The notes under the pieces are model-generated. The model saw only the letters and a program-made list of their open reading frames with translations, made no database searches and was not told where the DNA came from. Of a DNA stretch of 64,000 bases, positions 670-43,833 are shown one piece after another (positions within the stretch are counted from its first letter, which is position 1; each line of letters begins with the position of its first letter). The position numbers and the translations under genes were made by a program. The DNA lies in the NCBI GenBank assembly GCA_963745075.1, contig CAVUWV010000012.1, positions 96,001-160,000 on the forward strand, written 5' to 3'. This DNA comes from Candidatus Hydrogenedentota bacterium. GTDB taxonomy: Bacteria > Hydrogenedentota > Hydrogenedentia > Hydrogenedentales > SLHB01.

Positions 670-2862
670 ATGCGCAGTATGCCGTTCGATGCGGAAACCA
701 TGGGTTCATACCGTCTTGTCCACGAATTGGGGCGGGGCGGAATGGGGGTCGTGTACCTTGCCGAAGATACGCAGTTGAGCCGCACGGTCGCGCTCAAATT
801 CCTGTTTCCGACCCTCGCCAACGATCGGGCGTTCATCGACCGCTTCCAGCAGGAGGCGCGGGCCATATCGGGGCTGAACCATCCCCACATCGTGCACATC
901 AACAGTTTCCAACGGTTTGACGACCAACAGGTTGCCATCGACATGGAATACGTCGGCGGCGGGTCCTTGGGGCAGTTGATGGCCGGGCGGAAAGCGGACG
1001 CGCCCGCTGGTGCGGTTTCGATGGATGCCATCGTGACGATTGCCTATGAAACACTGTTGGGGTTGCAGGCCTGTCACCATCTCGGCGTGGTCCATCGCGA
1101 CATCAAGCCGAGCAACATCCTGCTTACCGGCGAGGGCCGTGTGAAGATCACGGATTTCGGTTTGGCCACGGCGTACGCCTCGCATCTGGAAGCGTCGGTG
1201 GCGCGGACGACGAGTTCGAGCTTCTTCATGGGCACGCCCCGGTTTGCACCGCCGGAAGCCTGGGAATGCCTGAAACCGGAGCCCATGTGGGATTTCTACT
1301 CCCTGGGCGTCGTCCTTTACGAGGCATTGACGGGAGTCATTCCTTACGACGGGGGCTCGCCGCTGGCGATCATCAAACAGATGACAGGGGAAAAACCCCC
1401 GACGGTGCGCGAGGTAAATCCGAGTATTTCGGAGCCGCTGGGCGCCCTGGTAGATTCCATGATGTCCCGTTCACCCGAGGAACGGCCGCAAAGCGCCGAG
1501 GAAGCGATCGAAGCCTTGCGTGCAACACCGGAGTTTCCCAAGGGCGACGATGGGGAAGGGCCGACGATCGTTCTGCCGCTCAAGGTGCGGGGCGATCGCA
1601 CGGCGAAAACCTGGTCGAGATCGTCCCGGGCGTTGGTCGCGTCGCTTGCGCTTGTTGCCGTGGTCTTCGTAGGGTCGCTCTTCGCGTGGTTTCAGTGGTC
1701 CCCGTCGCGTAACCCCTCGGGGCCGGCGGAATCACCGTCCGCGTCGCAAACACCATCGCCTGCGAAAGCGGAAGCGGCACTTGCATCATCCCGGTTTGCC
1801 GAAGGGCAATGCCGGGTGTATTCCGTCACGTCGATCGGGGGCGAGGCCTTGCCCGGTTGTTCGCTGTTGTATGTGCGCGGGAACGACGGCGGTGGCCAGT
1901 TCGTCGCGTATTGGGAATCCGGCATGCTTCGCGCGGACGCGGCGTCCGAGGCAGGTAACGTTCTGGAACTTCGCGGCGGATGGGCGCGTTTCCGCGATAG
2001 GTTCGGCCGGGCCGTGCAACGGGGCACCTTGACGGGCACCGGTCAATGGCTTGCCGAACGCAACGCGTTTACCGCGACACTGCGGATGGTCAACGATTCC
2101 GACAATACGGTCTTCGATGCGACATTGAGCGGCGTGACCCGAGACCCGCGCGAAAGCGACACCCAATTCTTCGCGACACTCGAGGAGCAACCGAGTGTAA
2201 TGTCGCTGATTTACAACGAGTTGCTGCCGCGGGGCATCGATTGGGCGATCCAATGCGAGGGGTATCTGCCGGCACTGCCCGGCGCGCGATACGCGGTGCC
2301 CGCGATCGATGCCGGTGCCGTTCGCGTTGACGGGATTCTTTCCGAGGAAACCTGGTTCAAAGCATATTATGACGAAACCGGACGGATCGGCGAATTGAAA
2401 TCACTTCCGGGATCCGAACCCGTCAGCCTGCACGTGCGCAGTACGCCACAAAACGCGTTTCTCGGCGTGAGCATCCCGGTCAAGGGAAGCAGTGCTTTGC
2501 GGCTGGCGATTGCCGTTCAAGATCGCGTCGGATTGCCTTTCAACCTGACGCCGCGCTACGTCATCCGTGTCAGCGATGACGCGCCGATCGAATTCACGCG
2601 ATATGTCGGGTCTCGCGAGGCGCCGTGGGAAACCCCGTGGCACGTGGAGACAGGGCAGTCGGAGAATGCGTGGACCGTGGAGCTGGCAATACCGAGGATC
2701 GATACCGGCGATGACGCCGCACGCATGCGATTGAACGCGGCACTCTTCCGCGTGGCCCCCGGTGGCGAAGCGACGCCCATCGCAACGTGGGGGTGGCCCG
2801 AACTCGACGCAACACGGCACGGCGCCCTATTGGTGTTCAAAACTGTGAATGGGGCTAGATAA
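670..2862 (+). CDS. Membrane Hanks-type Ser/Thr protein kinase with C-terminal extracytoplasmic domain (copy 1)
   Basis: GRGGMGVVY, VALK, HRDIKPSN, DFG and GTPRF motifs; TM segment ALVASLALVAVVFVGSLFAWF; C-terminal region with a VDGILSEETW CBM9/DOMON-like motif. Confidence 0.92.
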   Translation: MRSMPFDAETMGSYRLVHELGRGGMGVVYLAEDTQLSRTVALKFLFPTLANDRAFIDRFQQEARAISGLNHPHIVHINSFQRFDDQQVAIDMEYVGGGSLGQLMAGRKADAPAGAVSMDAIVTIAYETLLGLQACHHLGVVHRDIKPSNILLTGEGRVKITDFGLATAYASHLEASVARTTSSSFFMGTPRFAPPEAWECLKPEPMWDFYSLGVVLYEALTGVIPYDGGSPLAIIKQMTGEKPPTVREVNPSISEPLGALVDSMMSRSPEERPQSAEEAIEALRATPEFPKGDDGEGPTIVLPLKVRGDRTAKTWSRSSRALVASLALVAVVFVGSLFAWFQWSPSRNPSGPAESPSASQTPSPAKAEAALASSRFAEGQCRVYSVTSIGGEALPGCSLLYVRGNDGGGQFVAYWESGMLRADAASEAGNVLELRGGWARFRDRFGRAVQRGTLTGTGQWLAERNAFTATLRMVNDSDNTVFDATLSGVTRDPRESDTQFFATLEEQPSVMSLIYNELLPRGIDWAIQCEGYLPALPGARYAVPAIDAGAVRVDGILSEETWFKAYYDETGRIGELKSLPGSEPVSLHVRSTPQNAFLGVSIPVKGSSALRLAIAVQDRVGLPFNLTPRYVIRVSDDAPIEFTRYVGSREAPWETPWHVETGQSENAWTVELAIPRIDTGDDAARMRLNAALFRVAPGGEATPIATWGWPELDATRHGALLVFKTVNGAR

Positions 2863-2885
2863 CAATCCGTTTGGGAGTAGGCGAT

Positions 2886-5064
2886 GTGATTCGGACAATG
2901 ATCGCCCATTGAGTTCGGTGCGGCACTGCTGTTCCTGGTGAGCCTGCTCCCGTGCTTCAGCGGAGGAACGGTACACGCGCAGGAACCTGAAGAGGCATTC
3001 GTTCCGCCGTCGTCCAATCCGGCATCGCTTACCGTCGTGAATGACCTGCTGCTGTTCGTCGCCGACGACGGCCTGCACGGCCGGGAGCTGTGGCGGTACC
3101 ACGACCGGACCGACGAAGCCGCAATGGTCGCGGATTTGACGAAGGGCCCGGAGGAGACAATCTTTGGACCAATGGTCTCGTTTGCGCAGCATTGCCTGTT
3201 TGGCGTCCGCGATGCCGAGCATGGAAGTGAACTTTGGATCACGGACGGCACCGAGAAGGGCACGGCTCGTCTCGCACGCTGGGATTTTGGACCGGAGAAA
3301 GGGTTCGCCTATTTTCTGGGCGAGTTGGACGGTCAGTATATCTTCGCCGTTGATGAGGCGTTCGCGACACGGTTGTGGCGGACGGATGGGACCCCGGAAG
3401 GCACGCGATCGGTAATGGAGTCGGAGGGCGGCACCTCGCCGATGGTGGAGCGCGATTGCGCCTGCCGGGTCGGCGACGCACTCCTGTTTCCCGCCTATGT
3501 CGCCGGGTCGAAGGCCGGCGAATTCCGCTCCGGATTGTGGCGCACAGACGGAACCGCGGAGGGCACGTCGGAACTTCGAACCTTTCTCGAAGCGCCCGAA
3601 GAACTGATTTCTATCGACTCCGGCGCGATTTTCAGTGCCTATACCGAAAAAACCGGGCATGAAGCTTGGATTACAGACGGCACATCCGATGGCACTCGAC
3701 TTCTGCACGATATCGTGGAAGGCCCGGGGTCATCGGGGCCGAAGGGATTTTGCCCGTTTGGACCACGTTTTATCTTCTCCGCGTGGCGGGAGCGCACGGG
3801 CACCGAATTATGGTTGTCCGGCAACGCTCCCGGTGACTTGACGGAGGTGGACATCGAGCCCGGTGCGAATGGGTCGGACCCCTATGCGTTCAAGGCGGCA
3901 GGGCCGTATGTGTATTTCTGCGCGACACGCAGCGGCTTTGGCAAAGAGTTATGGCGTTCCGACGGCACACCCGAAGAAACTATTCGGTTGACGGATAGCC
4001 GTCCCGGGCCGCTGTCGGGAGAACCGTATGCGTTGTGCGTCTTGAACAACCAGGTGTTCTTCAGCGCCCACAACGACGAATACGGCGAGGAACTTTGGGT
4101 TAGCCGGGGTGACCCCGCGAATACGCAAATGGTGTTGGATATCGCGAAGGGCCCCATGAGTTCGGAACCGTATGGAACGGTCGTGTATCACGGTCTGGTG
4201 TATTTCGCAGCCACCCATCCGCTCCACGGCCGGGAACTCTGGCGCAGCAACGGCTCGCCCGAAGGGACCGCCTTGGTCAAGGATATCAACAACGATCTCC
4301 GCATCAACCCGTCGTCCGCGCCGCAGCAGTTGACCCCCGCCGGCAAGCGGCTTTTCTTCGTGGCGAACGATATCCAGCACGGCGCCGAATTGTGGCGCAC
4401 GGATGGGACGCGGGCCGGCAGCGCCATGGTGCGCGACATCTATCCCGGCCGGGCCAGTTCGGACCCACGGAATCTGACTGCGGTGGGGGAACGCGTTTAT
4501 TTCAGCGCGGATGATGGCGCACATGGCGTCGAACTCTGGCAGTCCGATGGCGAAGCGACCGGCACGTCGCTCGTAGTCGATATCGCCCAGGAAGGGTCGT
4601 CCGGGCCGCGGGAGCTGACGGCCTTTGGAGACGTGCTGATGTTTGTGGCACATCGCCCCAGCGACGGCGAGGAACTCTGGATTACCGAACCGGGCGGCGC
4701 GCGCCGCATGCGGGACATCGCGCCGGGGCCGGCTTCCTCGAGCCCGCGCGACCTGGCCGTCTGGCAGGGAGCGGTTTATTTCCGTGCCGACGACGGGGTG
4801 CATGGCGAGGAACTCTGGCGCAGCGACGGCACGGAGCGCGGCACGTTTATGGTGAAGGATATCGTTCCTGTGCCGTACGAGGGGGCTTCGTTGGAGGAAA
4901 TCGTTCCGAACGGCGATCGGCTGTATTTTGCGGCCGACGATCGGGTCCATGGATTGGAGTTGTGGACGTTTGGGCCGGAAGATGCTAGATTACCCTCAGT
5001 CCTTGACCTGGTGACCTTAGACGATATTCTAGTGACCTCACATTCACCGACGGGGAGCCCGTAG
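2886..5064 (+). CDS. Secreted ELWxxDGT-repeat beta-propeller protein (copy 1)
   Basis: About 14 ELWxxDGT-type repeats (ORF track 2938-5064). Removing one C from CCC at 2905-2907 joins GTG 2886 (GGAG RBS) to a signal peptide MIRTMIAIEFGAALLFLVSLLPCFSGGTVHA. Confidence 0.88.
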
Positions 5065-5068
5065 CCAA

Positions 5069-6895
5069 ATGCACGAGCTGGTCGAACGAACCGGCGCCTC
5101 CGAAGGACGGCGCTGGACCATCAAACGCGAGCCCATGCTGCTGGGGCGCAGCGCGCAGTGCGACATCCGCGTCATCGATACCATTGTGTCGCGCCGGCAC
5201 TGCGAGATCTGGGAGTCCGACGCGGGCGTCCACTTCCGGGACCTGGGCAGCAGCAACGCCTCGCTGATCAATGGCGAGCCCATCCACGAAACGGTGTTGC
5301 GCACCGGCGATGAGATCTCCATTGGCGGCCATGTGTTCGTCGTCGCTTCGGCCGAAGTGAAGAATGATTTTCTGGATGCGTCCGTGGACGATCCAACCCC
5401 CATTACGGTTGCGTTGTCCGAAAGTGTGTACGCGCTGGACGAGGTATGTGAAGTTGATAAGCCGGGGTTTACGGCAGAAGACGGATTCCGCTCGTTGCTG
5501 GCTTTCAGCCGCCAACTCAGCCGAATCGAGACGGTGACGGAATCGCTCGAATGCCTGGAGCGCCTTCTCGTGGATCGGTTCAAGCCGGAGGCGTTGTGGG
5601 TGGTGACGTTTCGCGGCGCGGAACGTGAACCCTTACAACAACGCATTGTTGGCGATGCCACGTCCGGCAACATCCCCGTCGACGCGATTCACCGCGCGGC
5701 GCAACAGACCGCCGGGTTTCTCGTGCCGTTGACCCACCGCGGCGGCAAACGGAGCGCGCTGCAGACCCTCATGGTGACGCCGCTCACCATCGGAAACGAG
5801 GCCATCGGCGCCATCGCCGCGCAGGCCGGCCTGCCCCATGGCGTGTTCGACGAGAGCGATCTCGAGTTCTTCATCGCCGTCGCCCACACCTTTGCCCCGT
5901 ATTTCCGTGCGCTCGGGCGTGCCGCGCAATTGAAACGGGACTATGAACGATCCGACGCCGCGTTGGATCGGAGCAGCGGGCTTATCGGAGAAACCCCCGT
6001 CATGCGGCGCGTGCGTAAAGAGCTTCGACGGGCCGCCGAGACGCCCTTAAACGTACTGCTCTGCGGAGAAACGGGGACGGGCAAGGAACTCGCCGCGCGC
6101 ATGCTTCACGATGAGTCCCCCCGCGCCGACGGACCTTATATCGTGGTGAACTGCGCTGCGATCCCGTCCAACTTGTTCGAAAGCGAGATCTTCGGTCACG
6201 AGCAAGGCGCGTTTACCGGCGCGACCCGCCGCAAGATCGGCCGTTTCGAAGAGGCCCATGGCGGCACCCTGTTTCTGGACGAGATCGGCGATCTCTCCGA
6301 AGAGAATCAGGCCTGCCTGTTACGGGCCATTGAAGTCGGCTCGTTCAACCGCGTGGGTGGTCCGGCCATCATCGTCGACGTACGCGTTGTCGCGGCGACC
6401 AACCGGTTGTCGGTCAATGCCTCCCATCCGCAATGCATGCGGTCCGACCTTTACCACCGCTTGAGCGGGTTCGAAATCCACTTGCCGCCGCTGCGGGAGC
6501 GCATAAAGGACGTCGGTCCGCTCGCGGAGCATTTTCTTCAGCAATTTAACCGGCACAACGGCACCTTCATCGCGGGTATCGCGCCGGAGGCGTACCAGGC
6601 CCTGTCGGAATGGTACTGGCCCGGCAACGTCCGCGAGTTGCGGGCCTGCATCGAACGCGCCGCGTCACTCACGCAAAGCGACACGATTCAACTCAGCGAC
6701 ATCCTGCTCCGCGACCCGGTCGCCCGAGCTGCCGAACAGTCCGGTGTGAAATTGACACTCGCCGAGGCCGAAAAGAAGCACATCCTCGCCGTGCTTCAGC
6801 ACAATCAGGGCAACATCCGCGCGACCGCGCGTGCCCTCGACATCTCCCGCACCACGCTCTACAAAAAATTCGAGGACTACGGCATCACGTCGTAG
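5069..6895 (+). CDS. FHA-GAF-like-AAA+-HTH sigma54-dependent enhancer-binding protein (copy 1)
   Basis: FHA motifs GR, SRRH and DLGSSN; Walker [28 protein letters not shown]; Fis-type [15 protein letters not shown]. Confidence 0.93.
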
Positions 6896-7655
6896 ACTCG
6901 ACTGGCTTCAGTCGCTCATGGGCTGTGTGCGCAATCACCGTAGTACGTGGCTTCTCATGTTAACTCCCAATCCAAGCGAATCGTTTTGGGGCGATGCCCA
7001 CGCGGAGTTCGCAGTCTTCGACGATCGCCAACACAAGTGTGTATGGTGGAATCCACACGAAAACATCATTCGCAGTCTTCGTAATTTTTCGCTTTGTAAC
7101 TAGCTGAAGTGTAATTGGTTATCAAGGTTCAGCGCTTTGCAGGCATGGGCGGCGCTTGTGACCTCAAGCGGCCGGTTCCGATGTCCCAAAGGTCCAAATG
7201 TTCTATCCCGGGATTCTCACACGCATCAAACGTCGAATCCGTAAATCCAAACCGCCCTGGAGCTTCGCGCGTTGGTCCGAGCTTTTGGGGTTCGCAGAGC
7301 GCGCTCGGGAATTCCTCAACTGTGAGCCTTCGGTCTTTCTCGAAAGCATTTCTCACCGCGTCCAAGGTACCGGTTCAGCAAGACGACGATTTTCGGGGCG
7401 GTGAGAAATGCGGGCTACACCTTTCATCCCGCTCATTCTATACGCCTGACGCCCGCCGGATCTCCTGGTTCCCCACGCTGGTTCCCGTTGCCGCCAAAAC
7501 CTTTAGCGCAGCCGTCGATTGGAAACGACTGTGCACTATCCAGTATCTTAGTTGGCGTGTGAAGTTGTGTTGCCGTCTCTGTGCTTGGTATGTGTGAGTC
7601 CCGTATTCATTGAGGATTACGGGCGGGAAGTTTGGTTCCTTAGTATGGGGTCAGT

Positions 7656-9878
7656 TTGAGTACCGCCGGAAAGATTCAACCGGGCCGTCTGTTAGGCAAA
7701 TACCGCATTATCTCGGAGATAGGCCGCGGAGGAATGGGGGTTGTCTATCTGGCCGAGGACACGTCGCTCGACCGCAACGTGGCGCTGAAACTCTTGCCGG
7801 CTGCACTCATGCTGGATGAATCCTTCGCGGCCCGGTTCCGGAAGGAAGCGAAGGCTATCGCAGCGCTCTCCCATCCCAATGTCGTTCACGTTCACGCGTT
7901 CGAAGTGATCGAAGGAATCCCGATCATCGAGATGGAGTATATCGAAGGGGGTTCACTCAGCGAGCGCCTGCGCAAGGAAGTCCTTACCGCCCATACGCTG
8001 GTCAAGTATGCCCACGACGTGGCCGCGGCACTCGGTTTCTGCCATGGGTTGCACGCGGTTCATCGCGACATCAAGCCATCGAACATCCTGATTGACCGGC
8101 TCGACCGCGCGCGGCTAGCCGATTTCGGAATCGCAAAAGCCGTTGCCGAATCGGAGCACCTTTCGCTTACCCATTCCTGGTCCGGTGTTTTTCAGGGCAC
8201 TCCGCACTACGTGCCGCCGGAGGCATGGGAAGGACGTCCGCCTACACCGGGGTGGGACATCTACGGGTTGGGCGTGGTTCTATTCGAATCGTTGACCGGA
8301 GCGCCGCCCTATTCCGCACCCACGCCGCTCGAACTCGTCCGGAAGATCGCGACTACCCCCGTTCCCCCGATCAGAGAATTAAATCCGAAGGTATCCGAAC
8401 CACTCGGCGCGCTGATCGATGAAATGGTGTGCCCAAATCCGGACGAACGGGTAGGTGATGCCGAGCAGGTTCTGCGCCGCTTGGAGGATGTACCGGAATA
8501 CGAGGCGGTCGGCGGCTCGGAGGCCGTGACGCAGACGTTGTCGACCCCTTCGACACCGCGTATTTGGCGAAGTACGACGAGCGCGATTCGCCGGAATCGT
8601 GTGTCATTCGGGGTTCTGGGCGCTGCGGTTCTTCTGGTCCTGCTCGCGATAGGGTATCTCATGCCGCGTCTTCCGCTGCACGCGGACGACACGCGTATGG
8701 GCCCATCGCAGTCCGACATTGGATCGTCAATTGCGGGTCCCACGCAAGACGTAGATCTCCTACTCCCGACGCTTTCGACGGAGGGTTTACTCGGGTTGTC
8801 GAAAGGCGTTACCGGCGGGAACACGCTCGTCTTCGCGGCACGACACCAACCCGATGTCACCGAAGTTTGGCTTGTCTCGTTCACCAGCAGCGGAGACCCC
8901 GTTCAAATTGTCGCCAGCGGTTCCGAAAATGTGGAGTGCCTCGATCTGGTAAAGGAGAGCGAAGACGGCGACTATACCGTACACGGTTCTTGGGCCGGTT
9001 ACTCGGACGAGGCGGGTACCGCATTTCAATATGGCACCGTACAGGGCTCACTCGAATGGCGGCCGGTCCCGGCCAACTTTTACGGTGTCTTGACCTATCA
9101 CTCGGATAAGACCGGGGCCGATTACGACGAGCCGGTAAGTGCGGGCAGGCATCCGGACATTGTCAATGACACACAGTTTGTATATCACTTGGAATCTTCG
9201 GAGTACATTCAGCCGGTTCTGTACAACCAACTGATGCCTCGCGGATTGGAATGGGCCGCATCTATCGACGGCTTATTGCCATGCTTTGTGGGTGGTGTTT
9301 CGCATGTCTCAACGATCACCGAGGCTGCGAATGGCGTATCAAACGATCACGCTGCCTGGGACGAGACGTTTGTAGACGTTGCACCCTTGGACGGGTGGCC
9401 GAAAACGCTCCGTCCAGAACTATATGCGGTATGCACGGCGAAGGCATTGCTTGTGCGTTTCCAGTGGAAAGACCTCGCGGTGGATTCTCCGTTGCTCGAT
9501 TTGCGCGTATTGCGGACGTATCGCGTTCCCTTGTCGGCGAGCCCGGCATTGCGGATCGTGTATGAAGCGAAAAACGACACAACGCGAGAATGCTTTGGCG
9601 GCGACGGCGAAACGCTCGTCGAAGGCGACTGCACATTTCAAACCGGCACGACCGGCGATACAACGTACATCGAAGGCGTGATTCCCCATACCGTGTTTGG
9701 TGACGGCATGGAAGCGCCCGGCGTTGATGACCGGTGGCGACTTAACGCGCTGGTGTACCGCAAGGGCGACACGTCCGGACGCGAAATCATCTGTCGCTGG
9801 GGATTCCCGGACGAGACCGCCGTGCAGCATGGTGCCGTCCTTCGCTTCGACGGGAAAACGGGGAACCCGGCACGATGA
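7656..9878 (+). CDS. Membrane Hanks-type Ser/Thr protein kinase (copy 2, paralog of 670-2862)
   Basis: GRGGMGVVY, VALK, HRDIKPSN, DFG and GTPHY motifs; TM segment VSFGVLGAAVLLVLLAIGYL; C-terminal motifs shared with copy 1. Confidence 0.92.
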   Translation: MSTAGKIQPGRLLGKYRIISEIGRGGMGVVYLAEDTSLDRNVALKLLPAALMLDESFAARFRKEAKAIAALSHPNVVHVHAFEVIEGIPIIEMEYIEGGSLSERLRKEVLTAHTLVKYAHDVAAALGFCHGLHAVHRDIKPSNILIDRLDRARLADFGIAKAVAESEHLSLTHSWSGVFQGTPHYVPPEAWEGRPPTPGWDIYGLGVVLFESLTGAPPYSAPTPLELVRKIATTPVPPIRELNPKVSEPLGALIDEMVCPNPDERVGDAEQVLRRLEDVPEYEAVGGSEAVTQTLSTPSTPRIWRSTTSAIRRNRVSFGVLGAAVLLVLLAIGYLMPRLPLHADDTRMGPSQSDIGSSIAGPTQDVDLLLPTLSTEGLLGLSKGVTGGNTLVFAARHQPDVTEVWLVSFTSSGDPVQIVASGSENVECLDLVKESEDGDYTVHGSWAGYSDEAGTAFQYGTVQGSLEWRPVPANFYGVLTYHSDKTGADYDEPVSAGRHPDIVNDTQFVYHLESSEYIQPVLYNQLMPRGLEWAASIDGLLPCFVGGVSHVSTITEAANGVSNDHAAWDETFVDVAPLDGWPKTLRPELYAVCTAKALLVRFQWKDLAVDSPLLDLRVLRTYRVPLSASPALRIVYEAKNDTTRECFGGDGETLVEGDCTFQTGTTGDTTYIEGVIPHTVFGDGMEAPGVDDRWRLNALVYRKGDTSGREIICRWGFPDETAVQHGAVLRFDGKTGNPAR

Positions 9879-11698
9879 ACTGGCAGTTGACGACCAAGAT
9901 CGGAAAACGTAAAGGGGCGAGTTGGCCGATCGGGGAAGGCGCGCTGCTAGTGGGCCGCTCGAAGCGGTGCGACGTGACGGTTCCGGACCCTCACGTATCG
10001 CGCGAGCAGTTTCGATTGATTCAGCGTGACGGTAAGGTCCTGCTCGCACACCTCAGCGCGAACCATCCCACATTGGTGAATGGACGAACCGTGTCCGAAG
10101 TCGTCGTCAATCCCGGGGACGAGATCAATGTGGGGAGTGTGACGTTTATCGTCACCGTCATGAGTGAAGACGAACAGGTTACTCCAGGACTCCTAGATGC
10201 TCACACGCCGGTAACGATGCCGGTGCGTCCGGGTTCCGTGGTGGAACTCTCGGTCGCCGGGGTCGCGCCTCAGGCGAAACCGCGGGATATTCGCGATCTC
10301 GCTACCTTGCACGATCTCGCCATGCAACTTGGCGCTCATTGCACCGAGGCCGAAACGATAGAAACGGTTGTCTCGTTCATCGTACGCAACGTCGCGGTAT
10401 CGGCGTGCTACTGGTTGCGTTCCGATCCGGCGGGTAGTTTGACGGTCGTCCATCCCCCAAATCACGAACTAAGTGAATCGTTGATAGGTGTTGTGCAGGA
10501 AGAACTAAAATCGGGATTGGCCTTGGCACGAACCGTACTTGCGACGGAAGGGGATGGGCCGGAGCGCGATGTCTTCTTTGTGCGGTTTTGCGTGCGGAAC
10601 AACTCGTTTGATCTGGTTTGTCTGGAGTGCGAGCGGCCGTCATCGTTCGACGGCGATTCGGATATCGGATTTGTGCTGGCGATTCTCCGAACGGCCGAGC
10701 CGTATCTGGCGAACGTTGCTAACCCGACCACGGAAGTGGACGCGCTCGCACGCGATACCGAATTGGAAGAAGAGAATTCGCCGCTGGTGGGTCGAACCCC
10801 GGGAATCAAACAGGTGCGCAGGGTTCTTGCCATGGCGGCACGTGCCGAGTTGCCCGTCCTTATCCAAGGTGAGACCGGCACCGGAAAGGAGCTTGCCGCG
10901 CGGCTCCTGTACCAGCTGTCGGCGCGAAGCGATAAGCCTTTGATTGCCGTCAACTGCGCCGCGCTACCGGATTCATTATTTGAGAGCGAGTTCTTCGGGC
11001 ATGAAAAAGGCGCCTTTACCGGCGCGAGCGCTGCGCGGGATGGACTCATGAAGCAAGCAGATGGGGGCGTTTTGTTTCTCGATGAACTTCCCAGCCTCAG
11101 CTTGCAAAACCAAGCCCGATTGCTCCGGGCCATTGAGACCGGCGCTTTCCGGCCGGTCGGCGGTCGGGCCGAAGACTACGCGGACGTATGGGTGATTGCG
11201 GCGTCAAATCGCGACATGTACGATGCCGTCGCGAAAGGCGAGTTCCGGGAAGACTTGTATTACCGGCTTCGGGCTATCGACATTGTGATTCCTCCGCTTC
11301 GCGAACGGAGGGAGGACATCCCGTTGCTCGCGGAGAAATTCATGGAAGAATTCGCCCGGCAAAAGAATACATCTGCGCCTACTTTGGGAAAGAAGGAGTT
11401 TGCGTATCTCAAGTCGCTGGCTTGGCCGGGCAACGTCCGGGAATTGCGCAATCGGATGCAGACCCTGGTTGCCCTGCATCCGGGCAAGCGAATCTTGGTG
11501 GACGATTTGCGTAGCCTGGTGCAACCTTCGTCTCCGTTGCCCGACAGTCTTGAAGAAAGCGTTCAGAACGCAGAGCGCGACTATATCAGCCGTGTGCTCG
11601 GAGAATGCGGCGGGCGCATCTCGACGGCGGCGGAACGGCTCGGAATGCATCGCAATACGTTACGCAAGAAAATGCAGCAATATGGCCTTGGAAAGTAA
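9875..11698 (+). CDS. FHA-domain sigma54-dependent enhancer-binding protein (copy 2)
   Basis: ATGA overlap with the kinase stop; FHA-like [45 protein letters not shown]. Confidence 0.92.
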   Translation: MNWQLTTKIGKRKGASWPIGEGALLVGRSKRCDVTVPDPHVSREQFRLIQRDGKVLLAHLSANHPTLVNGRTVSEVVVNPGDEINVGSVTFIVTVMSEDEQVTPGLLDAHTPVTMPVRPGSVVELSVAGVAPQAKPRDIRDLATLHDLAMQLGAHCTEAETIETVVSFIVRNVAVSACYWLRSDPAGSLTVVHPPNHELSESLIGVVQEELKSGLALARTVLATEGDGPERDVFFVRFCVRNNSFDLVCLECERPSSFDGDSDIGFVLAILRTAEPYLANVANPTTEVDALARDTELEEENSPLVGRTPGIKQVRRVLAMAARAELPVLIQGETGTGKELAARLLYQLSARSDKPLIAVNCAALPDSLFESEFFGHEKGAFTGASAARDGLMKQADGGVLFLDELPSLSLQNQARLLRAIETGAFRPVGGRAEDYADVWVIAASNRDMYDAVAKGEFREDLYYRLRAIDIVIPPLRERREDIPLLAEKFMEEFARQKNTSAPTLGKKEFAYLKSLAWPGNVRELRNRMQTLVALHPGKRILVDDLRSLVQPSSPLPDSLEESVQNAERDYISRVLGECGGRISTAAERLGMHRNTLRKKMQQYGLGK

Positions 11699-11729
11699 TA
11701 CCAAGTGCAACGGCAGGAATCCTGGTGCA

Positions 11730-14522
11730 ATGCAAGCGCGTCGCGTCGCGCTATGTGGATGGATGACGTTCGTGCTGACACTGTCTTGGGGATTCCATAC
11801 TTTCGGGACTGCGATCGCGCAAGACGCTCGCGTGAATCAGGCCCAGTATTCCGTCGCGCTTCAACCGAACCCGGGTTCCAAAATCCACCGGATCATCTCA
11901 TCCGATCGGTACGTATTCTTCTGGGCCGACAACGGGTATTGCGGGGTTGAACTCTGGAAATACGATCCCGTGAACGGTGAAGTCTCGCTGGTTTGCGACA
12001 TCAATCCCGGTTTGTCGGACGGCATATACGCGAACGATTGCGTGGTTTGGAAAGGCGTTCTCTATTTTTCCGCCGCGGACGGCGTCCACGGAATGGAGCT
12101 ATGGCGGAGCGACGGAACGGAGGAAGGAACCTGGCTCGTCAAAGACATCAACGAAATTCGTGACCAGGGGTCCAAGCCCGAGTTGTTCCAGATTCTTAGG
12201 AATTCGCTGATCTTTTTGGCCGACGACGGCGTGCACAACGTTGAGCTTTGGCGCTCGGATGGAACGGCGAAGGGGACTGCCCTTCTGGCAGATATCCAAC
12301 CCCCGAGTTTGGGTAAAGGCACGTTCAATGCGGTCGCGCCATTCGGCGATTTCGCGTTGTTCAGGGCGGCTTCCAAGGCAGACCTGGGAGAACTCTGGCG
12401 AACCGATGGCACGACCGAGGGGACCCACCAAATCGTCGTGGACGAATTGGACATGGGGGCTTTCCAAGGCCCTATCGTGCCCTTGGGGCAGTGCGCCGTG
12501 TTTGTCGGCAAATCACCGGGCGCAGGCGCGGAGTTGTGGCGAACGGACGGAACCCCGGAAGGCACATTTCTGGTGCGAGACATCCGGTCGGGTCCGGCGG
12601 ATTCCAATCCCGCAGACCTTACGGTATTCAAGGGGCGAGTCTTCTTCAAAGCGCAGGACGATAGTCATGGCGCCGAACTTTGGTCGTCCGACGGCACACT
12701 CGAAGGCACCGTGCTTGTCAAAGACATGGTGCCCGGTGGAGAAAGTGGAGAACCGGCCCCGTTTCGCGTTGCGGGTAATTGGATCTTCTTTGTGGCATCA
12801 GACCCGGAGCACGGCCGGGAACTGTGGGTGTCGGATGGAACCGGGGAAGGTACGCAACTTCTCCTGGATGTCATGTCAGGACCCGAAAGTAGCGATCCCT
12901 ATTCGCTTACACCCTTCGGCAATCGCTTGCTGTTCAGCGCGAAAAATCGGGGTATTGGCGAGGAACTCTGGATCAGTGATGGCACGCCGGACGGAACGGT
13001 GCCCGTCAAAGACATTCATGCGGGACCCGAAAGCTCTGAGCCCTATTGGCTGTGTGAACATCAGGGGCGGGTGTATTTTTCAGCCGACGACGGAATACAT
13101 GGTCAAGAACTTTGGCGGACGGACGGGACCCCGGAAGGGACCAGCCTGCTTGCCGATATTGCATGGCCGTACACGCCGCCACCCAGTGCCGATCCTGTAT
13201 TGATTACCGAAGGTCCCGACGGCGCGTACTTCATCGCCCGAGGGGAAGACCAACGCTGGCGTCCCTGTTTTAGTGATGGAACGTGGAATGGCACTTACAT
13301 GTTCCAAGACGCCCCGGCGTTGCAGAAGAAGGATGCCTACTATGCATTGCTTCCCGTAGATGATGGACTCTTTCTGGCGATGAAGGGACCCGATGGACGG
13401 GCGGCAGTGTGGTTCGTGTCCCGAAATCCATTCGGCTCACACGTAGTGGCGCAACTGGGTCTTCGTTCGGCTTCACCGCGACAGGGGCTGCTAATCGCCG
13501 CAGGCGACACGGTCTATTTCCCGGGATATGAGGAAGGCTCCGGCGAGGAATTGTGGAGTGCGGACGTGCGCGGAGACAACGCCGCGTTGGTGCAGGAGAT
13601 TAACCCGGGTGCGTCCGGCTCGTTTCCCGACAATCTGGTGCGGTGGAACGACCTGCTGTGCTTTACCGCCGCCTCCGAAAAATACGGAGAAGAACTATAC
13701 ACATGGGACGGCAACACGGTTCGCATGCTGGCCGATATCAATTCAGGTGAGGCCGGGTCCAATCCCGCGAATTTGCTCCCCAGGTCTAACGGCCTGTACT
13801 GGACAGCCAACGACGGCGTTCACGGTCCTGAAATCTGGATATGCGAAGACCCGGGCGAGCGTCCCCGCATGGTGGCCGACATAAATCCTGTACAGGACGC
13901 GCATGCAATCCCGCCGGCTCACCTCACGCCCGATGGAGAGGTACTCTACTTTGCTGCCGATGACGGCGTTCACGGGACTGAACTTTGGAAAACGAAGGGT
14001 ACGCCTGATTCCACCGAATTAGTCAGGGATCTTTTCTATGGACCGGCTTCGTCGAACCCGAACAACTTGTGCGCGTCGGAGAACCGCCTGTATTTTGCCG
14101 CGGAATCCTTGGAACGAGGCATCGAACTCTACGAGACCGACGGCACGCAGGAAGGCACTTTCCTCGTGCGCGATATGGTCGTAGGGCAGGGCAGCGGGTT
14201 TCCTCACGCGCTCGTGGCGTATGGTGGCCATGTCGTCTTCTGGTCGCAGTGGGAGAGTGACGGTCAGCCGCGCAACCCCCTGGCATTCTGTTGGATCGAC
14301 GGTCGTGACGTTCGCAGCGCCTCGATAGGACTGAATGATCTTGTTGCCGATCCTTCCGATTTCACGCGTGTCGGCGATACCCTCTTTTTCAGTGCCTATA
14401 GCCCGGGCCTGGGCCGTGAACTGTGGAAGTTGCAACGCTGGGGCCCCGACTCTTTCCATTGTGAGCCGGTGAAAGATCTCCGTCCCAACCGCCGCAACGT
14501 CATCCCCGCCCCGCCGCGGTAA
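11730..14522 (+). CDS. Secreted ELWxxDGT-repeat beta-propeller protein (copy 2)
   Basis: Signal-like N-terminus MQARRVALCGWMTFVLTLSWGFHTFGTAIA; about 18 ELWxxDGT-type repeats, some degenerate. Confidence 0.9.
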   Translation: MQARRVALCGWMTFVLTLSWGFHTFGTAIAQDARVNQAQYSVALQPNPGSKIHRIISSDRYVFFWADNGYCGVELWKYDPVNGEVSLVCDINPGLSDGIYANDCVVWKGVLYFSAADGVHGMELWRSDGTEEGTWLVKDINEIRDQGSKPELFQILRNSLIFLADDGVHNVELWRSDGTAKGTALLADIQPPSLGKGTFNAVAPFGDFALFRAASKADLGELWRTDGTTEGTHQIVVDELDMGAFQGPIVPLGQCAVFVGKSPGAGAELWRTDGTPEGTFLVRDIRSGPADSNPADLTVFKGRVFFKAQDDSHGAELWSSDGTLEGTVLVKDMVPGGESGEPAPFRVAGNWIFFVASDPEHGRELWVSDGTGEGTQLLLDVMSGPESSDPYSLTPFGNRLLFSAKNRGIGEELWISDGTPDGTVPVKDIHAGPESSEPYWLCEHQGRVYFSADDGIHGQELWRTDGTPEGTSLLADIAWPYTPPPSADPVLITEGPDGAYFIARGEDQRWRPCFSDGTWNGTYMFQDAPALQKKDAYYALLPVDDGLFLAMKGPDGRAAVWFVSRNPFGSHVVAQLGLRSASPRQGLLIAAGDTVYFPGYEEGSGEELWSADVRGDNAALVQEINPGASGSFPDNLVRWNDLLCFTAASEKYGEELYTWDGNTVRMLADINSGEAGSNPANLLPRSNGLYWTANDGVHGPEIWICEDPGERPRMVADINPVQDAHAIPPAHLTPDGEVLYFAADDGVHGTELWKTKGTPDSTELVRDLFYGPASSNPNNLCASENRLYFAAESLERGIELYETDGTQEGTFLVRDMVVGQGSGFPHALVAYGGHVVFWSQWESDGQPRNPLAFCWIDGRDVRSASIGLNDLVADPSDFTRVGDTLFFSAYSPGLGRELWKLQRWGPDSFHCEPVKDLRPNRRNVIPAPPR

Positions 14523-14595: not shown

Positions 14596-14665
14596 ATGCA
14601 CTCTTTAAAGTGCATTCGTGGCGCGCGGACTGTGCGCTTCCCAATGTGCGCACTTTCCCGATGCA
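14596..14665. promoter_or_regulatory. Candidate enhancer (UAS) sites for a sigma54 activator
   Basis: Perfect inverted repeat ATGCACT-N6-AGTGCAT (14596-14615) and related TGCGC-N8-GTGCG (14633-14650), 75-130 bp upstream of the -24 element. Confidence 0.5.
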
Positions 14666-14722: not shown

Positions 14723-14739
14723 TTGGCACTTCACTTGCT
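14723..14739 (+). promoter_or_regulatory. sigma54 -24/-12 promoter for the PQQ-propeller gene
   Basis: TTGGCACTTCACTTGCT, a near-consensus TGGCAC-N5-TTGC. Confidence 0.8.
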
Positions 14740-15019: not shown

Positions 15020-18000
15020 ATGCGATCGAGATTGTATGGCTATGTTGCTGTAGCCGCTGTCGCGTGTTTCGTCGGCTACGCGCTGTGCGACAGTGCGTAC
15101 GGCGACCCGTATCCAATGTTCGGGCACGACGCTCAACACACGAATTACGTTCCCGTCCCGGCCCCATTGGTGGAGCCGGATGTGCTATGGACGGCAACCA
15201 CCGGTGCTTCCGACCTCGTTGGCGGCATTGCGATGAGTCCCGTTGTGGACGATGCGGGGAACACGTTTGCGGCGTTCTTCCATACGGGCAACGACGTTGA
15301 GTATATGGTCGCTATCGACCGCTTCGGTGTAGAGACGTGGCGTGCGGGAATATCTGCCCCCGGGGCGAATCTCAGCAGCCCGTTGCTCGTAAGCGGTGAC
15401 TTGACGTGGTTCATTCAGCAGGGGTGGCTTGTTTCGCTAAACCAGGAAACGGGGGCCGTCAACTGGGCGGTGTATCTTGGCGGCCGCTCGATTTCCTCTC
15501 CCGTGGTGGACAGTGCCGGGAACATTTATGTCGGTGGAAGGCAGGACGGTGGCTTCTACAAAGTGGACTCCGCAACCGGTGCCGTGATTTGGGAATACGT
15601 GGTGACCGGCGGCGCCAGTTCCTCGCCGGCCTTGTCGCTCGATGAAGGAACCGTCTATATCGGCCGGAATCCGAATTCAACCTCGCCCGGCCTCCATGCC
15701 ATTGATGCCGCCACGGGCGCTCTCAAATGGATCTTCAATCCGCCGGGCACCGACTTGGGGTGGACTTCGCCGATGGTCGGAGCCGATGGCACCATCTATC
15801 AGCAGGAAGACTTTACCGGAATCTTGCATGCGCTCCAGGACGACGGCACTTCGTATACCGAGAAGTGGTCATTCGACCCGCTCAATTACAGCGAACCGCC
15901 GCGGATCGCCGCCACCGACGGAAACACGATCTACGTCATCTGCAATACGCCCGAACATACCGTCGTTGCGTTGAACCCGGACGGAACGGAGCAGTGGCGA
16001 ACGTTGCTCGGAGCCAACACCACGTGGGTCAGTGCCCCGCTCGTAACCGATGAGGCTGTGTACATCGTGCGGGAAGGCATGGGCGATATCGCGTGCTTGA
16101 ACAAGAGTGACGGATCGTTCGTGTGGCAGAAACAAGTTGCAACCACCAATTCATGGTTGCTCGCGGCGATTGGCATAGACGGCATGCTCCACGTGACGGC
16201 CTCGGAGCCCCTGGCGGACCCGACGCAGCCTGGTGTGATTGCACTGCGCCAGACGTATCCGGGATTGGCCGACAGTGCCTGGCCCATGCTGGGAAAAGAT
16301 GCGCAACATTCGGGGAACACGGACCGGTTGGGGCCGCTGAGCGAGCCCTGGGTGAAGTGGGAAGCGCACCCCGGAATTCCGTATGCCTATTGCTGGTCCC
16401 AACCTGTACTCGATGAAGACGGCAACCTCTACGTGACGGTTGGGCAAGCGAGCCCCGTCGCAGTGGCAGACCGGGGAGAGTTCCTCTTCTCGTATGATTC
16501 CGATGGTGTTGAGCGCTGGCAGAATGGGCCGCTGCCGACGCGAGGTCCGGGTCTCAGCATCCCGGCCGTCTCAGCCTATAGCAATATCATCGCGGGACTG
16601 CGTTATGGCGCGGTCGCCGCTTTCGAACGAACCGGCGGTCTTCTTCTGGGCTCCGTGTGGGTTGGCGAGAATATGATTTCGTCCCCCGCGATCGCACAGG
16701 ATGGCTACCTCTATGTTGGCGGTCGGAAAGCGGACAACGGCTTCTACAAGGTGAGCCCGGTAGACGGAAGTATTGTCTGGAAGCACGCCCTCGATACAGG
16801 GACCGCGGCATCGCCGGCGTTGTCTCTGGATCAGAGCACCGTGTACGCCGCCGGCAACGAGCCGGGGGATATCAACACGCTTCATGCGATTGACGCGTGG
16901 GACGGCACCGTCAAGTGGACATTCACCCTCACGGGGAGTGGTGGCTTCGGATGGGCATCCCCCGTGGTCGGGCCGGATGGCACTATCTATCAGGAAGACA
17001 GCGACGCGGGTGTCATGCATGCCTTGGTCGACAATGGAGCCTCGTATACCGAAAAGTGGTCCTTCGATACAGCCCGGCCAGGCGATTCACCTCGTGCGCA
17101 GGCCGTCGACGATGATACCGTCTATATCGCGACGGTTGGCCCCGATGCCTTGGTCTATGCCCTCGACTTCAACGGCGTGGTCAAGTGGAACACCATGTTC
17201 CCCGGTGTGGGCTTGATTGGCGTTCCGGTGGTTACCGACGAGGCGGTCTACGTAATCCTGGAGGACGGACTTGGTGGCCGGGTCGTTGGTCTCAATGCGG
17301 ACACCGGTGCCGTGCTGTGGGATAAGCAGGTCGGTTCGTCCGACGCCAGTGCGAGCGAACTCACGCTGGGCGACAACGGCGTGTTGTATTGCGCCATGTA
17401 CGGTACGGACACGCATCCCGATGAGACGACCGTCTTCGCATTGGCGCCCAACAACCCGCCCATCGCCGACGCAGGGAGCGATCAGACGCTCGAAGCGACG
17501 AGTGCCGACGGCGCGTCGGTGGACCTTGACGGCTCGGCCTCCAGCGATCCCGATTCGGCCCAGGGCGACAGCCTGACCTTCGAGTGGTTGGAAGGCGGCG
17601 ACGTGATTGCGACCGGAGAGACGGCGCAGGTTACCCTGCCGTTGGGCACGCACGCAGTCGTCCTGCGTGTCACAGACTCGCGCGGTGCGACTGACGAAGA
17701 TACTGTCGAGATCACGGTGCAGGACACGACCGCTCCGACGTTATCACTAAGCGCTTCGCCCCACTGTCTGTTCCCGCCGAACCACAAGATGGCGGATATC
17801 GCGATCGCTGCAACGATTGACGATGACGGGGATTCGGCGCCGGTACTGACCCTTCTGTCCGTAACCAACAACGAAGGCGACGATATGGTTGATGGCGGTG
17901 ACGGCAACACGACGCACGACATCCAGAATGTCGAGCTTGGTACGGCGGACGTTGCGGTTTCCCTGCGCTCCGAACGTCGAGGCAATGGGGATGGCCGTAT

Positions 18001-18133
18001 ATACGAGTTGACGTACCGCGTCACGGACGCATCGGGGAACTCGACCGTTCAAAGCGTGATTGTCGACGTACCACACGATGCGTCGGGCCACGTGTGCGAT
18101 AACCCGGACTGCGATCTGAATAACAGCAACTAA
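15020..18133 (+). CDS. Secreted protein with two tandem PQQ-like (BamB-type) beta-propellers, a PKD domain and a C-terminal Ig-like domain
   Basis: RBS GAGGAGGAG; signal peptide; two units starting YPMFGHDAQHT and WPMLGKDAQHSG with SSP/W repeats; PIADAGSDQT PKD motif; PPNHKM..RSERRGNGDGRIY tail. Confidence 0.85.
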   Translation: MRSRLYGYVAVAAVACFVGYALCDSAYGDPYPMFGHDAQHTNYVPVPAPLVEPDVLWTATTGASDLVGGIAMSPVVDDAGNTFAAFFHTGNDVEYMVAIDRFGVETWRAGISAPGANLSSPLLVSGDLTWFIQQGWLVSLNQETGAVNWAVYLGGRSISSPVVDSAGNIYVGGRQDGGFYKVDSATGAVIWEYVVTGGASSSPALSLDEGTVYIGRNPNSTSPGLHAIDAATGALKWIFNPPGTDLGWTSPMVGADGTIYQQEDFTGILHALQDDGTSYTEKWSFDPLNYSEPPRIAATDGNTIYVICNTPEHTVVALNPDGTEQWRTLLGANTTWVSAPLVTDEAVYIVREGMGDIACLNKSDGSFVWQKQVATTNSWLLAAIGIDGMLHVTASEPLADPTQPGVIALRQTYPGLADSAWPMLGKDAQHSGNTDRLGPLSEPWVKWEAHPGIPYAYCWSQPVLDEDGNLYVTVGQASPVAVADRGEFLFSYDSDGVERWQNGPLPTRGPGLSIPAVSAYSNIIAGLRYGAVAAFERTGGLLLGSVWVGENMISSPAIAQDGYLYVGGRKADNGFYKVSPVDGSIVWKHALDTGTAASPALSLDQSTVYAAGNEPGDINTLHAIDAWDGTVKWTFTLTGSGGFGWASPVVGPDGTIYQEDSDAGVMHALVDNGASYTEKWSFDTARPGDSPRAQAVDDDTVYIATVGPDALVYALDFNGVVKWNTMFPGVGLIGVPVVTDEAVYVILEDGLGGRVVGLNADTGAVLWDKQVGSSDASASELTLGDNGVLYCAMYGTDTHPDETTVFALAPNNPPIADAGSDQTLEATSADGASVDLDGSASSDPDSAQGDSLTFEWLEGGDVIATGETAQVTLPLGTHAVVLRVTDSRGATDEDTVEITVQDTTAPTLSLSASPHCLFPPNHKMADIAIAATIDDDGDSAPVLTLLSVTNNEGDDMVDGGDGNTTHDIQNVELGTADVAVSLRSERRGNGDGRIYELTYRVTDASGNSTVQSVIVDVPHDASGHVCDNPDCDLNNSN

Positions 18134-25307: not shown

Positions 25308-25822
25308 CAGGCAATCGGCACCGGCGCAGTTTGAATTTCGACTTGACCGTCACGCACGCGTACCGCATAACGCGGGAGCGGCTTGGGTGGAGGGCCGCCG
25401 GCCACGTCCCCGTTTTCGTAATACACGCCGCCGTGACACGGACACATGAACATGTTGGCGCGCGGCTCCCAACGCACCGGACATCCGAGATGGGTGCAAT
25501 TCAATGCGAAAGCGTGAAACGTCTCGCCCTCCACGCGTCGCAGCCACGCGGCGGTTTGGTCAGCCACGCCCGCCCACGGCCGGGCTCCGGCGTTCGTAAA
25601 CGATACGAGTACCGTTTTGCCCACTTCGAATCCATCTACCTTACCGACCGGCCGCCACAATTCCAGCGGCTTGCGCAGCAGCGGTGCAAATACGAAACCG
25701 AACACCGGGATGCTCATTGCAACTCCGGCTGCTGCGGTGATTCCTCCACTGAACCATTCCAGGAAGCGCCGTCGTGTAGCCGTGTATTCCCCACAGTTCC
25801 TAGGGTCACTTTCATTCGTCAT
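25307..25822 (-). CDS. qcrA: Rieske 2Fe-2S subunit of the cytochrome bc complex
   Basis: Tat motif TRRRFL; CTHLGC and CPCHGG boxes. Confidence 0.92.
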   Translation of the reverse strand: MTNESDPRNCGEYTATRRRFLEWFSGGITAAAGVAMSIPVFGFVFAPLLRKPLELWRPVGKVDGFEVGKTVLVSFTNAGARPWAGVADQTAAWLRRVEGETFHAFALNCTHLGCPVRWEPRANMFMCPCHGGVYYENGDVAGGPPPKPLPRYAVRVRDGQVEIQTAPVPIA

Positions 25823-26036
25823 GCCACATCTCCCAAATCCAGCCGCCGAGACCAGCCACGGTGATGGCGGCGCCGACACCCGTGTAGATCCACGAGGTCA
25901 CCACGCCCCAGACGGCAAACGTGATCCCAAAGGCCAGGATGACCGGCCATGGCGTCGGCCGGGGGATCACGGCCGGCTTCGGGCCGGCCGGATCGTGGCG
26001 GCTCTCATCGATATCTTGACGTTCTGCGTGTTGCAT
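25812..26036 (-). CDS. Small 2-TM membrane subunit (cytochrome c oxidase subunit IV-like)
   Basis: P.PTPWP start, two TM helices, GWIWE end; embedded in the cox/qcr operon. Confidence 0.65.
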   Translation of the reverse strand: MQHAERQDIDESRHDPAGPKPAVIPRPTPWPVILAFGITFAVWGVVTSWIYTGVGAAITVAGLGGWIWEMWHDE

Positions 26037-26056
26037 CGCGTTCTCTTTCCGTGGTG

Positions 26057-27420: not shown

Positions 27421-27479
27421 TGTGGAGGAATCCTTTCTTTGGCGCGCCGCTCATGATTGACGGTATCGCCACGGCGCGT

Positions 27480-30058: not shown

Positions 30059-30400
30059 AACAACTCGCAGTGGGTATGGCGTCCATCCTGAGAGTTCTGT
30101 AACGAAGCGCCACCGAGTTCGATTCGCCGAACGGCACCTCCCGGCAGCATATTGCACTTGGCCTTTAATTCCCGAAGGAAAGCGGCACCAAGCGTATTCT
30201 AGTGCAGATATGGCATCAAATCACGACGGTTCCGCGCGCGTGGAGCCCCTTCGGAAATCAAGCATTCGAACATTGATCGAGCAACTTAACTTCAAGACAC
30301 GAGAAGGACCGAGCTTTATTCCACCTCTACATCATACAGAAAAAGGTGTTGCATTCAAGAAACGGTGAGCAACCGGCCCCGCTCAATTCAGGCAAACCAA

Positions 30401-43763: not shown

Positions 43764-43833
43764 GTATAGCTCCTCCGCCCCTGCCCAGGGCGGTGAGTTT
43801 GCGGGGGCGTTTGGGGTAATTTGGCATGGCGGT

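Follow-up and report, generated by a model that had tools for sequence, protein, structure and literature searches.

In LuxP-LuxQ, TorT-TorS, ChvE-VirA and CpxP-CpxA, sensing by a membrane kinase is provided or gated by a soluble exported protein encoded next to it, and in LRP4-MuSK and the receptor-like protein/kinase pairs of plants a propeller or repeat co-receptor is found apart from the kinase; non-RD pattern receptors are known as well. Control by Ser/Thr kinases was reportedly proposed by Jelsbak, Givskov and Kaiser in 2005 for sigma54 enhancer-binding proteins of Myxococcus xanthus that carry a forkhead-associated (FHA) domain and no receiver domain. In Mycobacterium tuberculosis, PknH acts on the transcription factor EmbR via the FHA domain of EmbR, and PknD has a beta-propeller ectodomain, according to the part of one source that was accessible (PMC4601284). 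Here we analyze a 64,000-nt stretch (the window) of the 6.8 Mb genome of a bacterium from the uncultured phylum Candidatus Hydrogenedentota (assembly GCA_963745075.1, contig CAVUWV010000012.1, here C12), in which genes for a receptor Ser/Thr kinase (K), an ELWxxDGT-repeat propeller protein (E, or ELW) and an FHA-sigma54 activator (A) form two neighboring cassettes.

Our principal observation is that the conserved core of these cassettes consists of two genes rather than three, namely kinase and propeller. The adjacency or fusion of the propeller with the kinase, together with the frequent presence of an activator and a promoter, suggests that the propeller is the outside sensor of the kinase. 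Each cassette is probably a two-piece surface receptor wired to sigma54, with the propeller as activating sensor partner, and a flow of signal from kinase to activator to sigma54 is very likely where an activator is present. The receptor module is real, phylum-wide and apparently undescribed.

Gene content and origin of the two cassettes

The cassettes comprise six open reading frames, all on the + strand:

670-2862, + strand: K1, RD-type Hanks kinase with a Pkinase domain, one transmembrane helix (residues 321-339), an ectodomain and juxtamembrane Thr299
1795-2859, + strand: K1 ectodomain, modeled as an 8-stranded small beta-barrel, a helical linker and a CBM9/DOMON-like sandwich
2886-5064 (first in-frame GTG at 2938), + strand: E1, ELWxxDGT protein, 9-blade propeller plus 5 further blades
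5069-6895, + strand: A1, FHA, GAF-like, Sigma54_activat (AAA+) and HTH_8 domains, with an SRTTL helix
6896-7655: inter-cassette spacer, 760 nt
7656-9878, + strand: K2, RD-type Hanks kinase with a Pkinase domain, one transmembrane helix (residues 318-336) and an ectodomain of the same family as that of K1
9875-11698, + strand: A2, FHA, GAF-like, Sigma54_activat and HTH_8 domains, with an RNTL helix; 4-nt overlap with K2
11730-14522, + strand: E2, ELWxxDGT protein, long form, with a signal-peptide-like N-terminus

Gene order is K-E-A in cassette 1 and K-A-E in cassette 2. Gaps measure 4 nt between E1 and A1, -4 nt between K2 and A2, 31 nt between A2 and E2 and, for the two possible starts of E1, 23 or 75 nt between K1 and E1; the cassettes themselves are 760 nt apart. 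The presence, places and orders of the six genes had been given in an original prediction made from the sequence alone, and were confirmed by the reading frames, by the domains and by the scores of E1 and E2 against TIGR04534 (548 and 679 bits, cut-off 65).

Paralogs in the two cassettes are 32%, 33% and 34% identical, and each cassette has its own closest relatives: loci L113/L115 for K2/E2 and L117 for K2/A2, as opposed to L070/L104/L112 for K1/A1. This low identity and the separate relatives rule out a recent tandem duplication, as the original prediction had argued; its wording 'duplicated in tandem' is nevertheless misleading, because the nearest relatives of the cassettes differ. Judged by these comparisons, the two cassettes are old paralogs placed side by side. 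The spacer is without a sigma54 consensus site; it contains a perfect 14-nt inverted repeat (7346-7359 / 7398-7411, 38 nt between arms) and a 13-nt direct repeat at 7008/7069, and these repeats are possibly a junction scar.

Linkage of kinase and propeller genes

Full-length matches to the ectodomain-bearing kinase occur in 49 of 135 Hydrogenedentota genomes. We inspected the surroundings of all 81 such matches, counting ELW genes within 3 kb on the same strand. A downstream ELW gene was present for 77 of the 81 kinases, the four exceptions being at contig ends, and for 61 of 61 when 3 kb of downstream DNA was available. Since 21 of the 81 had been reached via an ELW gene or are the window's own, the 60 loci chosen by kinase alone were considered separately: 56 have the ELW gene (40 of 40 when covered) and in 54 it is the immediate next gene, although neither set of counts represents independent trials because ELW-adjacent kinases served as seed of the kinase profile and the genomes are relatives of one another. 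As a control, 78 ELW loci were sampled across phyla (one from Hydrogenedentota); any kinase was found in only six, none with the cassette ectodomain, and the seven control-locus kinases that were scanned are of WD40, PD40 or TPR types or show a kinase domain only. The search for a co-localized neighborhood in other genomes, which had been proposed as a check, has therefore yielded a kinase-ELW linkage well beyond chance.

For the ectodomain family, a word-index search returned only three proteins and a collection scan with K1 none, while a full HMMER scan with the ectodomain returned 170 clusters at E 1e-30; among the 150 of these that were listed, most are 690-780 residues long and the remainder shorter. 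At E 1e-25 the full ectodomain was not found in samples of 151 Planctomycetota, 151 Acidobacteriota and 151 Myxococcota genomes, which were searched without a positive control.

Within the family, similarities among ELW proteins follow those among ectodomains (rho 0.67, compared to a maximum of 0.17 in 999 permutations; same best match in 41 of 62), which indicates that the two travel as a unit and is not proof of binding. The activator is present in only 29 of 78 clusters, with the orders K-E-A (10), K-A-E (6), A-K-E (4), divergent (5) and other (4), compared to 40 clusters with K-E alone. The system is thus not obligately tripartite, and we rejected the obligate three-gene unit on this count.

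The source genome itself has five ELW genes, of which four are found together with a kinase and with an FHA activator: the two in the window, one in a K-A-E cassette on contig C31, and one on C8, where a fusion of kinase, transmembrane helix and ELW propeller is followed by an activator. The fifth, on C18, is solitary and has a C-terminal anchor. Elsewhere, L067, L101, L111 and L114 contain tandem kinase-ELW-kinase-ELW arrays without an activator, adjoined by genes that we take to be succinate-dehydrogenase-like.

Kinase-propeller fusions

The main ground for calling the propeller a sensor part of the kinase is the existence of fusions between the two. Such kinase-transmembrane-propeller proteins (about 800 residues) were found in 21 of 135 genomes, including the source genome (C8), and represent 12 of the best 120 database matches. 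In this sister family the propeller is placed directly behind the membrane helix, as the sole ectodomain. Twenty further fusion loci, out of 30 matches, were examined; in 10 of them the fusion gene is followed immediately by that of an FHA activator.

Fused and split kinases form one clade relative to 21 other kinases of the genome (99/99 on a 50-row subset, repeated on 36 rows). In 26 of 29 two-propeller ELWs, the fused propeller is closer to the N-terminal propeller than to the other one. Outside the fusions, the protein it matches best was a cassette ELW for 23 of 23, each time that of L116; the kinase tree does not support L116 as direct ancestor of the fusions. Split kinases are of RD type in 112 of 115 cases as opposed to the fused kinases, 19 of 21 of which are non-RD (HCD), a state that is to our knowledge unusual among bacterial receptor kinases. 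The non-RD fused family is represented by L033:9259-11655 and L207-L225. One RD kinase nested in the split clade bears a fusion-type propeller, probably acquired by domain swap. We rejected L226 as a fresh independent fusion, and consider a domain swap likelier there, because its propeller is nearest to other fusion propellers.

Kinase, ectodomain and propeller structure

Both K1 and K2 contain the Gly loop, VAxK, alphaC Glu, HRD, DFG and APE-like motifs, and hydropathy places a single transmembrane helix between the kinase domain and the C-terminal ectodomain. By their sequences they qualify as Hanks-type receptor Ser/Thr kinases, with catalysis and autophosphorylation predicted. The activation loop is Ser/Thr-rich in these kinases, and a juxtamembrane Thr is present in 69% of 114 and invariant in 13 fused kinases.

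The model of the K1 ectodomain has a predicted local confidence (pLDDT) of 89. Its sandwich half matches the CBM9 structure 1i82 (Z 16.4, root-mean-square deviation (rmsd) 2.8, 167 residues aligned), with a weak sequence match (E 1.7e-5), and a CBM9/DOMON-like fold is accordingly predicted for this half from the model; the barrel half matches numerous 8-stranded barrels at Z 8-11, none standing out. The ectodomain has no match in Pfam or in NCBIfam, and none of 21 members matches Pfam CBM9. Matches in a structure atlas were all below 0.9, the first search pointing to CBM9_1 clusters. At the equivalent of CBM9 Trp71, which we take to be the first Trp of the sugar-binding sandwich, the profile shows no Trp, and the printed alignment stops at chain residue 172, short of Trp175, presumably the second Trp of the sugar-binding site. 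The loss of Trp71 weakens the case for a glycan ligand at the kinase itself.

The E1 model comprises 14 blades (pLDDT 92, predicted template-modeling score 0.76), the first nine of which form a closed ring that best matches the designed 9-bladed Cake9 (Z 21.6, rmsd 3.6, 331 residues aligned). Cassette ELWs measure about 460+255 or about 455+440 residues, E1 being of the short form; from its length, E2 would consist of two full propellers. A C-terminal hydrophobic anchor is found in none of 65 cassette ELWs, E1 and E2 included, compared to 12 of 19 non-cassette ELWs of the phylum. The loops carry conserved aromatic residues at equivalent positions, reaching 100% at E1 model position 349. A complex prediction for E1 (658 residues) and the K1 ectodomain (342 residues) scored 0.01 against a mark of 0.32, which we read as evidence neither way. 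More broadly, ELWxxDGT proteins are spread across many phyla, with at least 654 confirmed matches, and away from the cassettes there are large surface proteins that begin with ELW domains. Large anchored ELW surface proteins are also seen beside cassettes (L046:9144-15062, L048:2263-7068), the one in L046 sitting downstream of the cassette's sigma54 promoter.

The partner encoded beside the kinase is predicted to be soluble and exported. The description of the propeller as secreted fits E2 and does not fit the assembled E1, in which a frame offset near 2904-2908 leaves the ribosome-binding site and start (2873-2888) out of frame with the hydrophobic core, such that the signal peptide is broken. 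A sequencing slip is plausible, because the reading frame is broken elsewhere in the assembly as well (7 times, at 4 distinct places, over 53 orthologous matches). Among the contig pieces listed for three DNA runs with small shares, none spans the start of E1.

Activators, promoters and candidate targets

A1 and A2 contain the Walker A, GAFTGA, arginine finger and Fis-type helix-turn-helix (HTH) of enhancer-binding proteins, and rpoN is present in the genome. In the FHA domains, the G-R and S-R residues are invariant in 30 of 30 and the Asn is conserved in at least 90%, while the His of S-x-x-H is replaced by Gln in A2; the phosphothreonine-binding residues are kept and binding is predicted. 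Similarities among kinases follow those among activators (rho 0.61, same best match in 24 of 36), and K1/A1 share relatives, as do K2/A2. Four of the six FHA-GAF-sigma54 activators of the genome are in kinase-ELW loci. The FHA-GAF module occurs in 107 of 135 genomes, that is in 49 of 49 with the kinase family and in 58 of 86 of the rest.

A sigma54 site was defined as intergenic, within 700 nt and above a score threshold of 20 of our own. With both flanks covered, such a site is near 15 of 18 activator clusters compared to 3 of 33 clusters without activator; with at least one flank covered, the figures are 20 of 28 and 3 of 47. In the window, these sites and their surroundings are as follows:

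1-169, - strand: 5' part of a divergent GNAT gene, FeeM-like acyltransferase (FeeM PF21926, E 3e-9)
290-306, - strand: sigma54 -24/-12 promoter-like site, TGGCCC-N5-TTGCC, facing the GNAT gene
405-444: tandem palindromic pair about 100-140 nt upstream of the 305 promoter, putative A1 site
14597-14614 and 14627-14658: palindrome TGCAC-N8-GTGCA and a second inverted repeat, putative A2 sites
14723-14739, + strand: consensus sigma54 promoter TTGGCAC-N5-TTGCT, 200 nt past E2
15020-18133, + strand: gene for an exported 1037-residue protein with BamB/PQQ-type propellers and a PKD domain

Thus both cassettes have a -24/-12 promoter with upstream palindromes nearby. The GNAT gene is followed, beyond the window, by a gene for a heme-oxygenase-like redox enzyme (Haem_oxygenas_2, E 5e-9), and this pair is the likely output of cassette 1; the likely output of cassette 2 is the exported PQQ-type propeller. 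The arms of the 405-444 pair (18 nt, 83% complementary) were recovered independently as an inverted repeat, and by its score the pair is within the top 6 of the genome's 208 sigma54-like sites. The 14724 promoter is the only strict match on the + strand of the 64 kb window, and of seven TGCAC-N8-GTGCA palindromes in the genome, the one at 14597-14614 alone precedes a sigma54-like site. A2 is the sole activator with an RNTL helix among those listed; we take this helix and its palindrome to be NtrC-like.

Across loci, paired TGT-N11-ACA-like palindromes lie about 100-160 nt upstream of the promoters. A palindrome score of at least 18 was obtained for 16 of 26 chosen promoters (a set leaving out the near-duplicates L040 and L076, L120 and the second L033 site) compared to 6 of 208 sigma54-like sites of the genome, three of these being cassette promoters; the comparison is partly circular because the pattern was derived by eye from the same promoters. 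Taken together, the intact FHA residues and GAFTGA and the sigma54 promoters and palindromes flanking activator cassettes support the FHA-activator/sigma54 wiring of the original prediction. That the system is free of histidine kinases is true of the six genes, which encode neither histidine kinase nor receiver, and is not universal: L054 has an FHA-GAF-histidine kinase (4085-5830, - strand) divergent from, and upstream of, its kinase-ELW pair, a possible hand-over from Ser/Thr to histidine kinase.

Outputs vary between loci and include kelch-LRR, BNR, PASTA, anchored ELW and PQQ-type exported proteins, a PAS-GAF protein, a WD40 kinase and the GNAT/redox pair. Since clustering of the neighbors over 78 loci gave no conserved target family, the ligand cannot be read from the targets. 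Scans for sigma70 promoters and terminators stayed at chance level.

Several side observations concern these promoters. At 7 of 24 sigma54 promoters, the gene that comes first is a stand-alone Fis/HTH_8-like reading frame of 57-95 residues (L046:8966-9193, L070:13484-13672, L074:5256-5510, L084:6072-6356, L100:9744-9935, L104:5125-5310 and L112:15009-15179); these frames align with the activator HTH, have a degenerate recognition helix and are possible feedback decoys. The FeeM-like acyltransferase and heme-oxygenase-like pair (L001:14857-16169) could make a small acylated product. Further sigma54-like promoters with high tandem-palindrome scores (C14:147977, C10:22644 and C24:255722 of genome G000) are candidate distant targets of FHA activators.

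Elsewhere in the window, 23859-30157 contains genes for cytochrome b/c and cytochrome c oxidase subunits I and II, and 42207-44844, a lower-GC stretch (54%) with LA2681-like HEPN and FRG-domain genes, is a possible defense island.

Proposed mechanism and alternative explanations

We propose the following chain of events. The ELWxxDGT protein would be exported as a soluble, anchor-less periplasmic propeller, whose N-terminal 9-bladed ring would bind a ligand from outside; a macromolecule, either protein or glycan, is the likeliest kind. Fusion, linkage and co-divergence suggest that the propeller then acts on the barrel and CBM9-like ectodomain of its own kinase and may control kinase dimerization, the propeller itself being the ectodomain in the sister family. 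From what is known of the kinase family, autophosphorylation would be expected on the Ser/Thr-rich activation loop and the juxtamembrane Thr. The FHA domain of the cognate activator would dock on the phosphorylated kinase, switching the activator on, and the activator would bind the paired palindromes 100-150 nt upstream of the adjacent sigma54 promoter, A1 presumably acting on the divergent GNAT/redox pair and A2 on the exported PQQ-type propeller. Where a cassette has no activator, the signal probably goes to FHA proteins whose genes lie outside it.

Extended to the phylum, the proposal becomes more tentative: Hydrogenedentota may use two-piece, eukaryote-style receptors in which an exchangeable soluble ELWxxDGT propeller reads a macromolecular pattern and switches a dedicated RD kinase via a hitherto undescribed barrel/CBM9-like docking domain, next to a sister family that is non-RD and fused, both feeding FHA-sigma54 activators with their own DNA-site specificity and, at some loci, an HTH-only feedback protein.

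A number of results weigh against a propeller sensor wired to sigma54. Co-divergence is also expected from plain operon co-inheritance, and the linkage counts and the palindrome test carry the dependence and circularity described above. In 49 of 78 clusters there is no activator, the palindrome scores of 10 of 26 promoters do not rise above background, and the targets form no conserved family. To these are added the missing Trp71 of the ectodomain and the broken signal peptide of E1.

Instead of activating the kinase, the propeller could be a brake or chaperone that holds the ectodomain inactive, as CpxP holds CpxA inactive, and is titrated off by misfolded envelope proteins, making the cassette an envelope-stress circuit that induces exported proteins. 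Its near-obligate coupling to the kinase gene suits a stoichiometric inhibitor, and many targets are indeed large exported proteins (kelch-LRR, BNR, PASTA, PQQ-type, anchored ELW). However, in 21 genomes the sister kinase has no ectodomain other than the propeller, which is a sensor position, and the loop aromatics are conserved as described; we regard a brake as unlikely. We give a little less credence to a kinase that senses a glycan or small molecule via its own CBM9-like or barrel domain, the ELW being merely a co-transcribed exported protein or scavenger without kinase contact. Such a kinase would make use of the two ligand-binding-type folds of the ectodomain, and the place of ELW domains at the head of large surface proteins elsewhere agrees with it; against it stand the fusions, the loss of the anchor in cassette copies only, the ELW gene next to all 61 ectodomain kinases with adequate downstream DNA, and the absence of Trp71.

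Two further explanations seem highly improbable to us. The FeeM-like acyltransferase and the heme-oxygenase-like enzyme, encoded beside K1 under a sigma54 promoter with a palindrome pair, might make a small signal detected by the receptor in an autoinducer loop, but no such family recurs among the neighbors of the 78 loci (families in at least 3 loci) and the other targets are unrelated. The activator might also be an independent one-component regulator, controlled by its GAF-like domain and merely traveling with the kinase. FHA-GAF modules are commoner than the kinase family, and 2 of the 6 FHA activators of the genome have no kinase within the 18-20 kb examined; yet the FHA phospho-binding residues are invariant, reading frames overlap, cognate kinases and activators co-diverge, and every genome with the kinase family also has the module. 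The propeller as activating sensor partner of its kinase is thus retained as the preferred explanation.

Comparison with known systems

No mention of 'ELWxxDGT' or 'TIGR04534' was found in the literature, most subscription papers being beyond the search. Papers on FHA domains, enhancer-binding proteins, sigma54 and kinases included none on a kinase-propeller-activator system by title or abstract start, and term searches in two Hydrogenedentota papers gave no passage on it, though supplements may list the genes. The analysis ties ELWxxDGT proteins, spread over many phyla, to a defined signaling role and describes a locus family with a complete, testable chain from exported sensor to promoter. 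If true, this would be the first function for ELWxxDGT propellers and would provide a bacterial Hanks kinase with an obligate secreted co-receptor, as well as a clean setting in which to study the long-standing proposal of sigma54 being driven by Ser/Thr kinases via FHA activators. Two cognate pairs with two different predicted DNA sites side by side offer built-in cross-controls, and the split and fused forms lend themselves to chimeric receptors.

With other ELWxxDGT (TIGR04534) proteins the cassette copies share the repeat, scoring far over the cut-off; most ELW proteins elsewhere are long, with Ig, PKD or anchor tails, whereas those of the cassettes consist of propeller alone and have no anchor. 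The C-terminal half of the ectodomain shares fold and weak sequence homology with the CBM9 of Thermotoga maritima Xyn10A (1i82) and differs from it in the missing Trp71, the missing Pfam CBM9 match and the small barrel in front. Eukaryotic co-receptors resemble the system in having a separate propeller partner, and the non-RD fused family has its parallel there too, by analogy only: homology to LRP4/MuSK was rejected, as Foldseek matches to LRP proteins reach a TM score of about 0.2, a generic propeller likeness. The LuxPQ/TorT-TorS type likewise encodes a soluble exported partner beside a membrane kinase, but those are histidine kinases with small partners, as opposed to a Hanks kinase with a 14-18-blade propeller, and the six genes include neither a histidine kinase nor a receiver domain.

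As in the M. xanthus proteins, the sigma54 AAA+ activator carries a fused FHA domain and lacks a receiver. Here, however, in another phylum, the activators share operons with one particular family of receptor kinases and with an exported propeller, and the kinase ectodomain, unlike in Hydrogenedentota, was not found in the 151 Myxococcota genomes searched. PknH-EmbR also leads from a receptor kinase to a transcription factor through FHA, although EmbR is a SARP regulator rather than a sigma54 activator, and the propeller of PknD is built into the kinase; the accessible part of the source (PMC4601284) describes no partner protein apart from it. Compared to known Ser/Thr-kinase-to-sigma54 signaling, the new element is the propeller partner.

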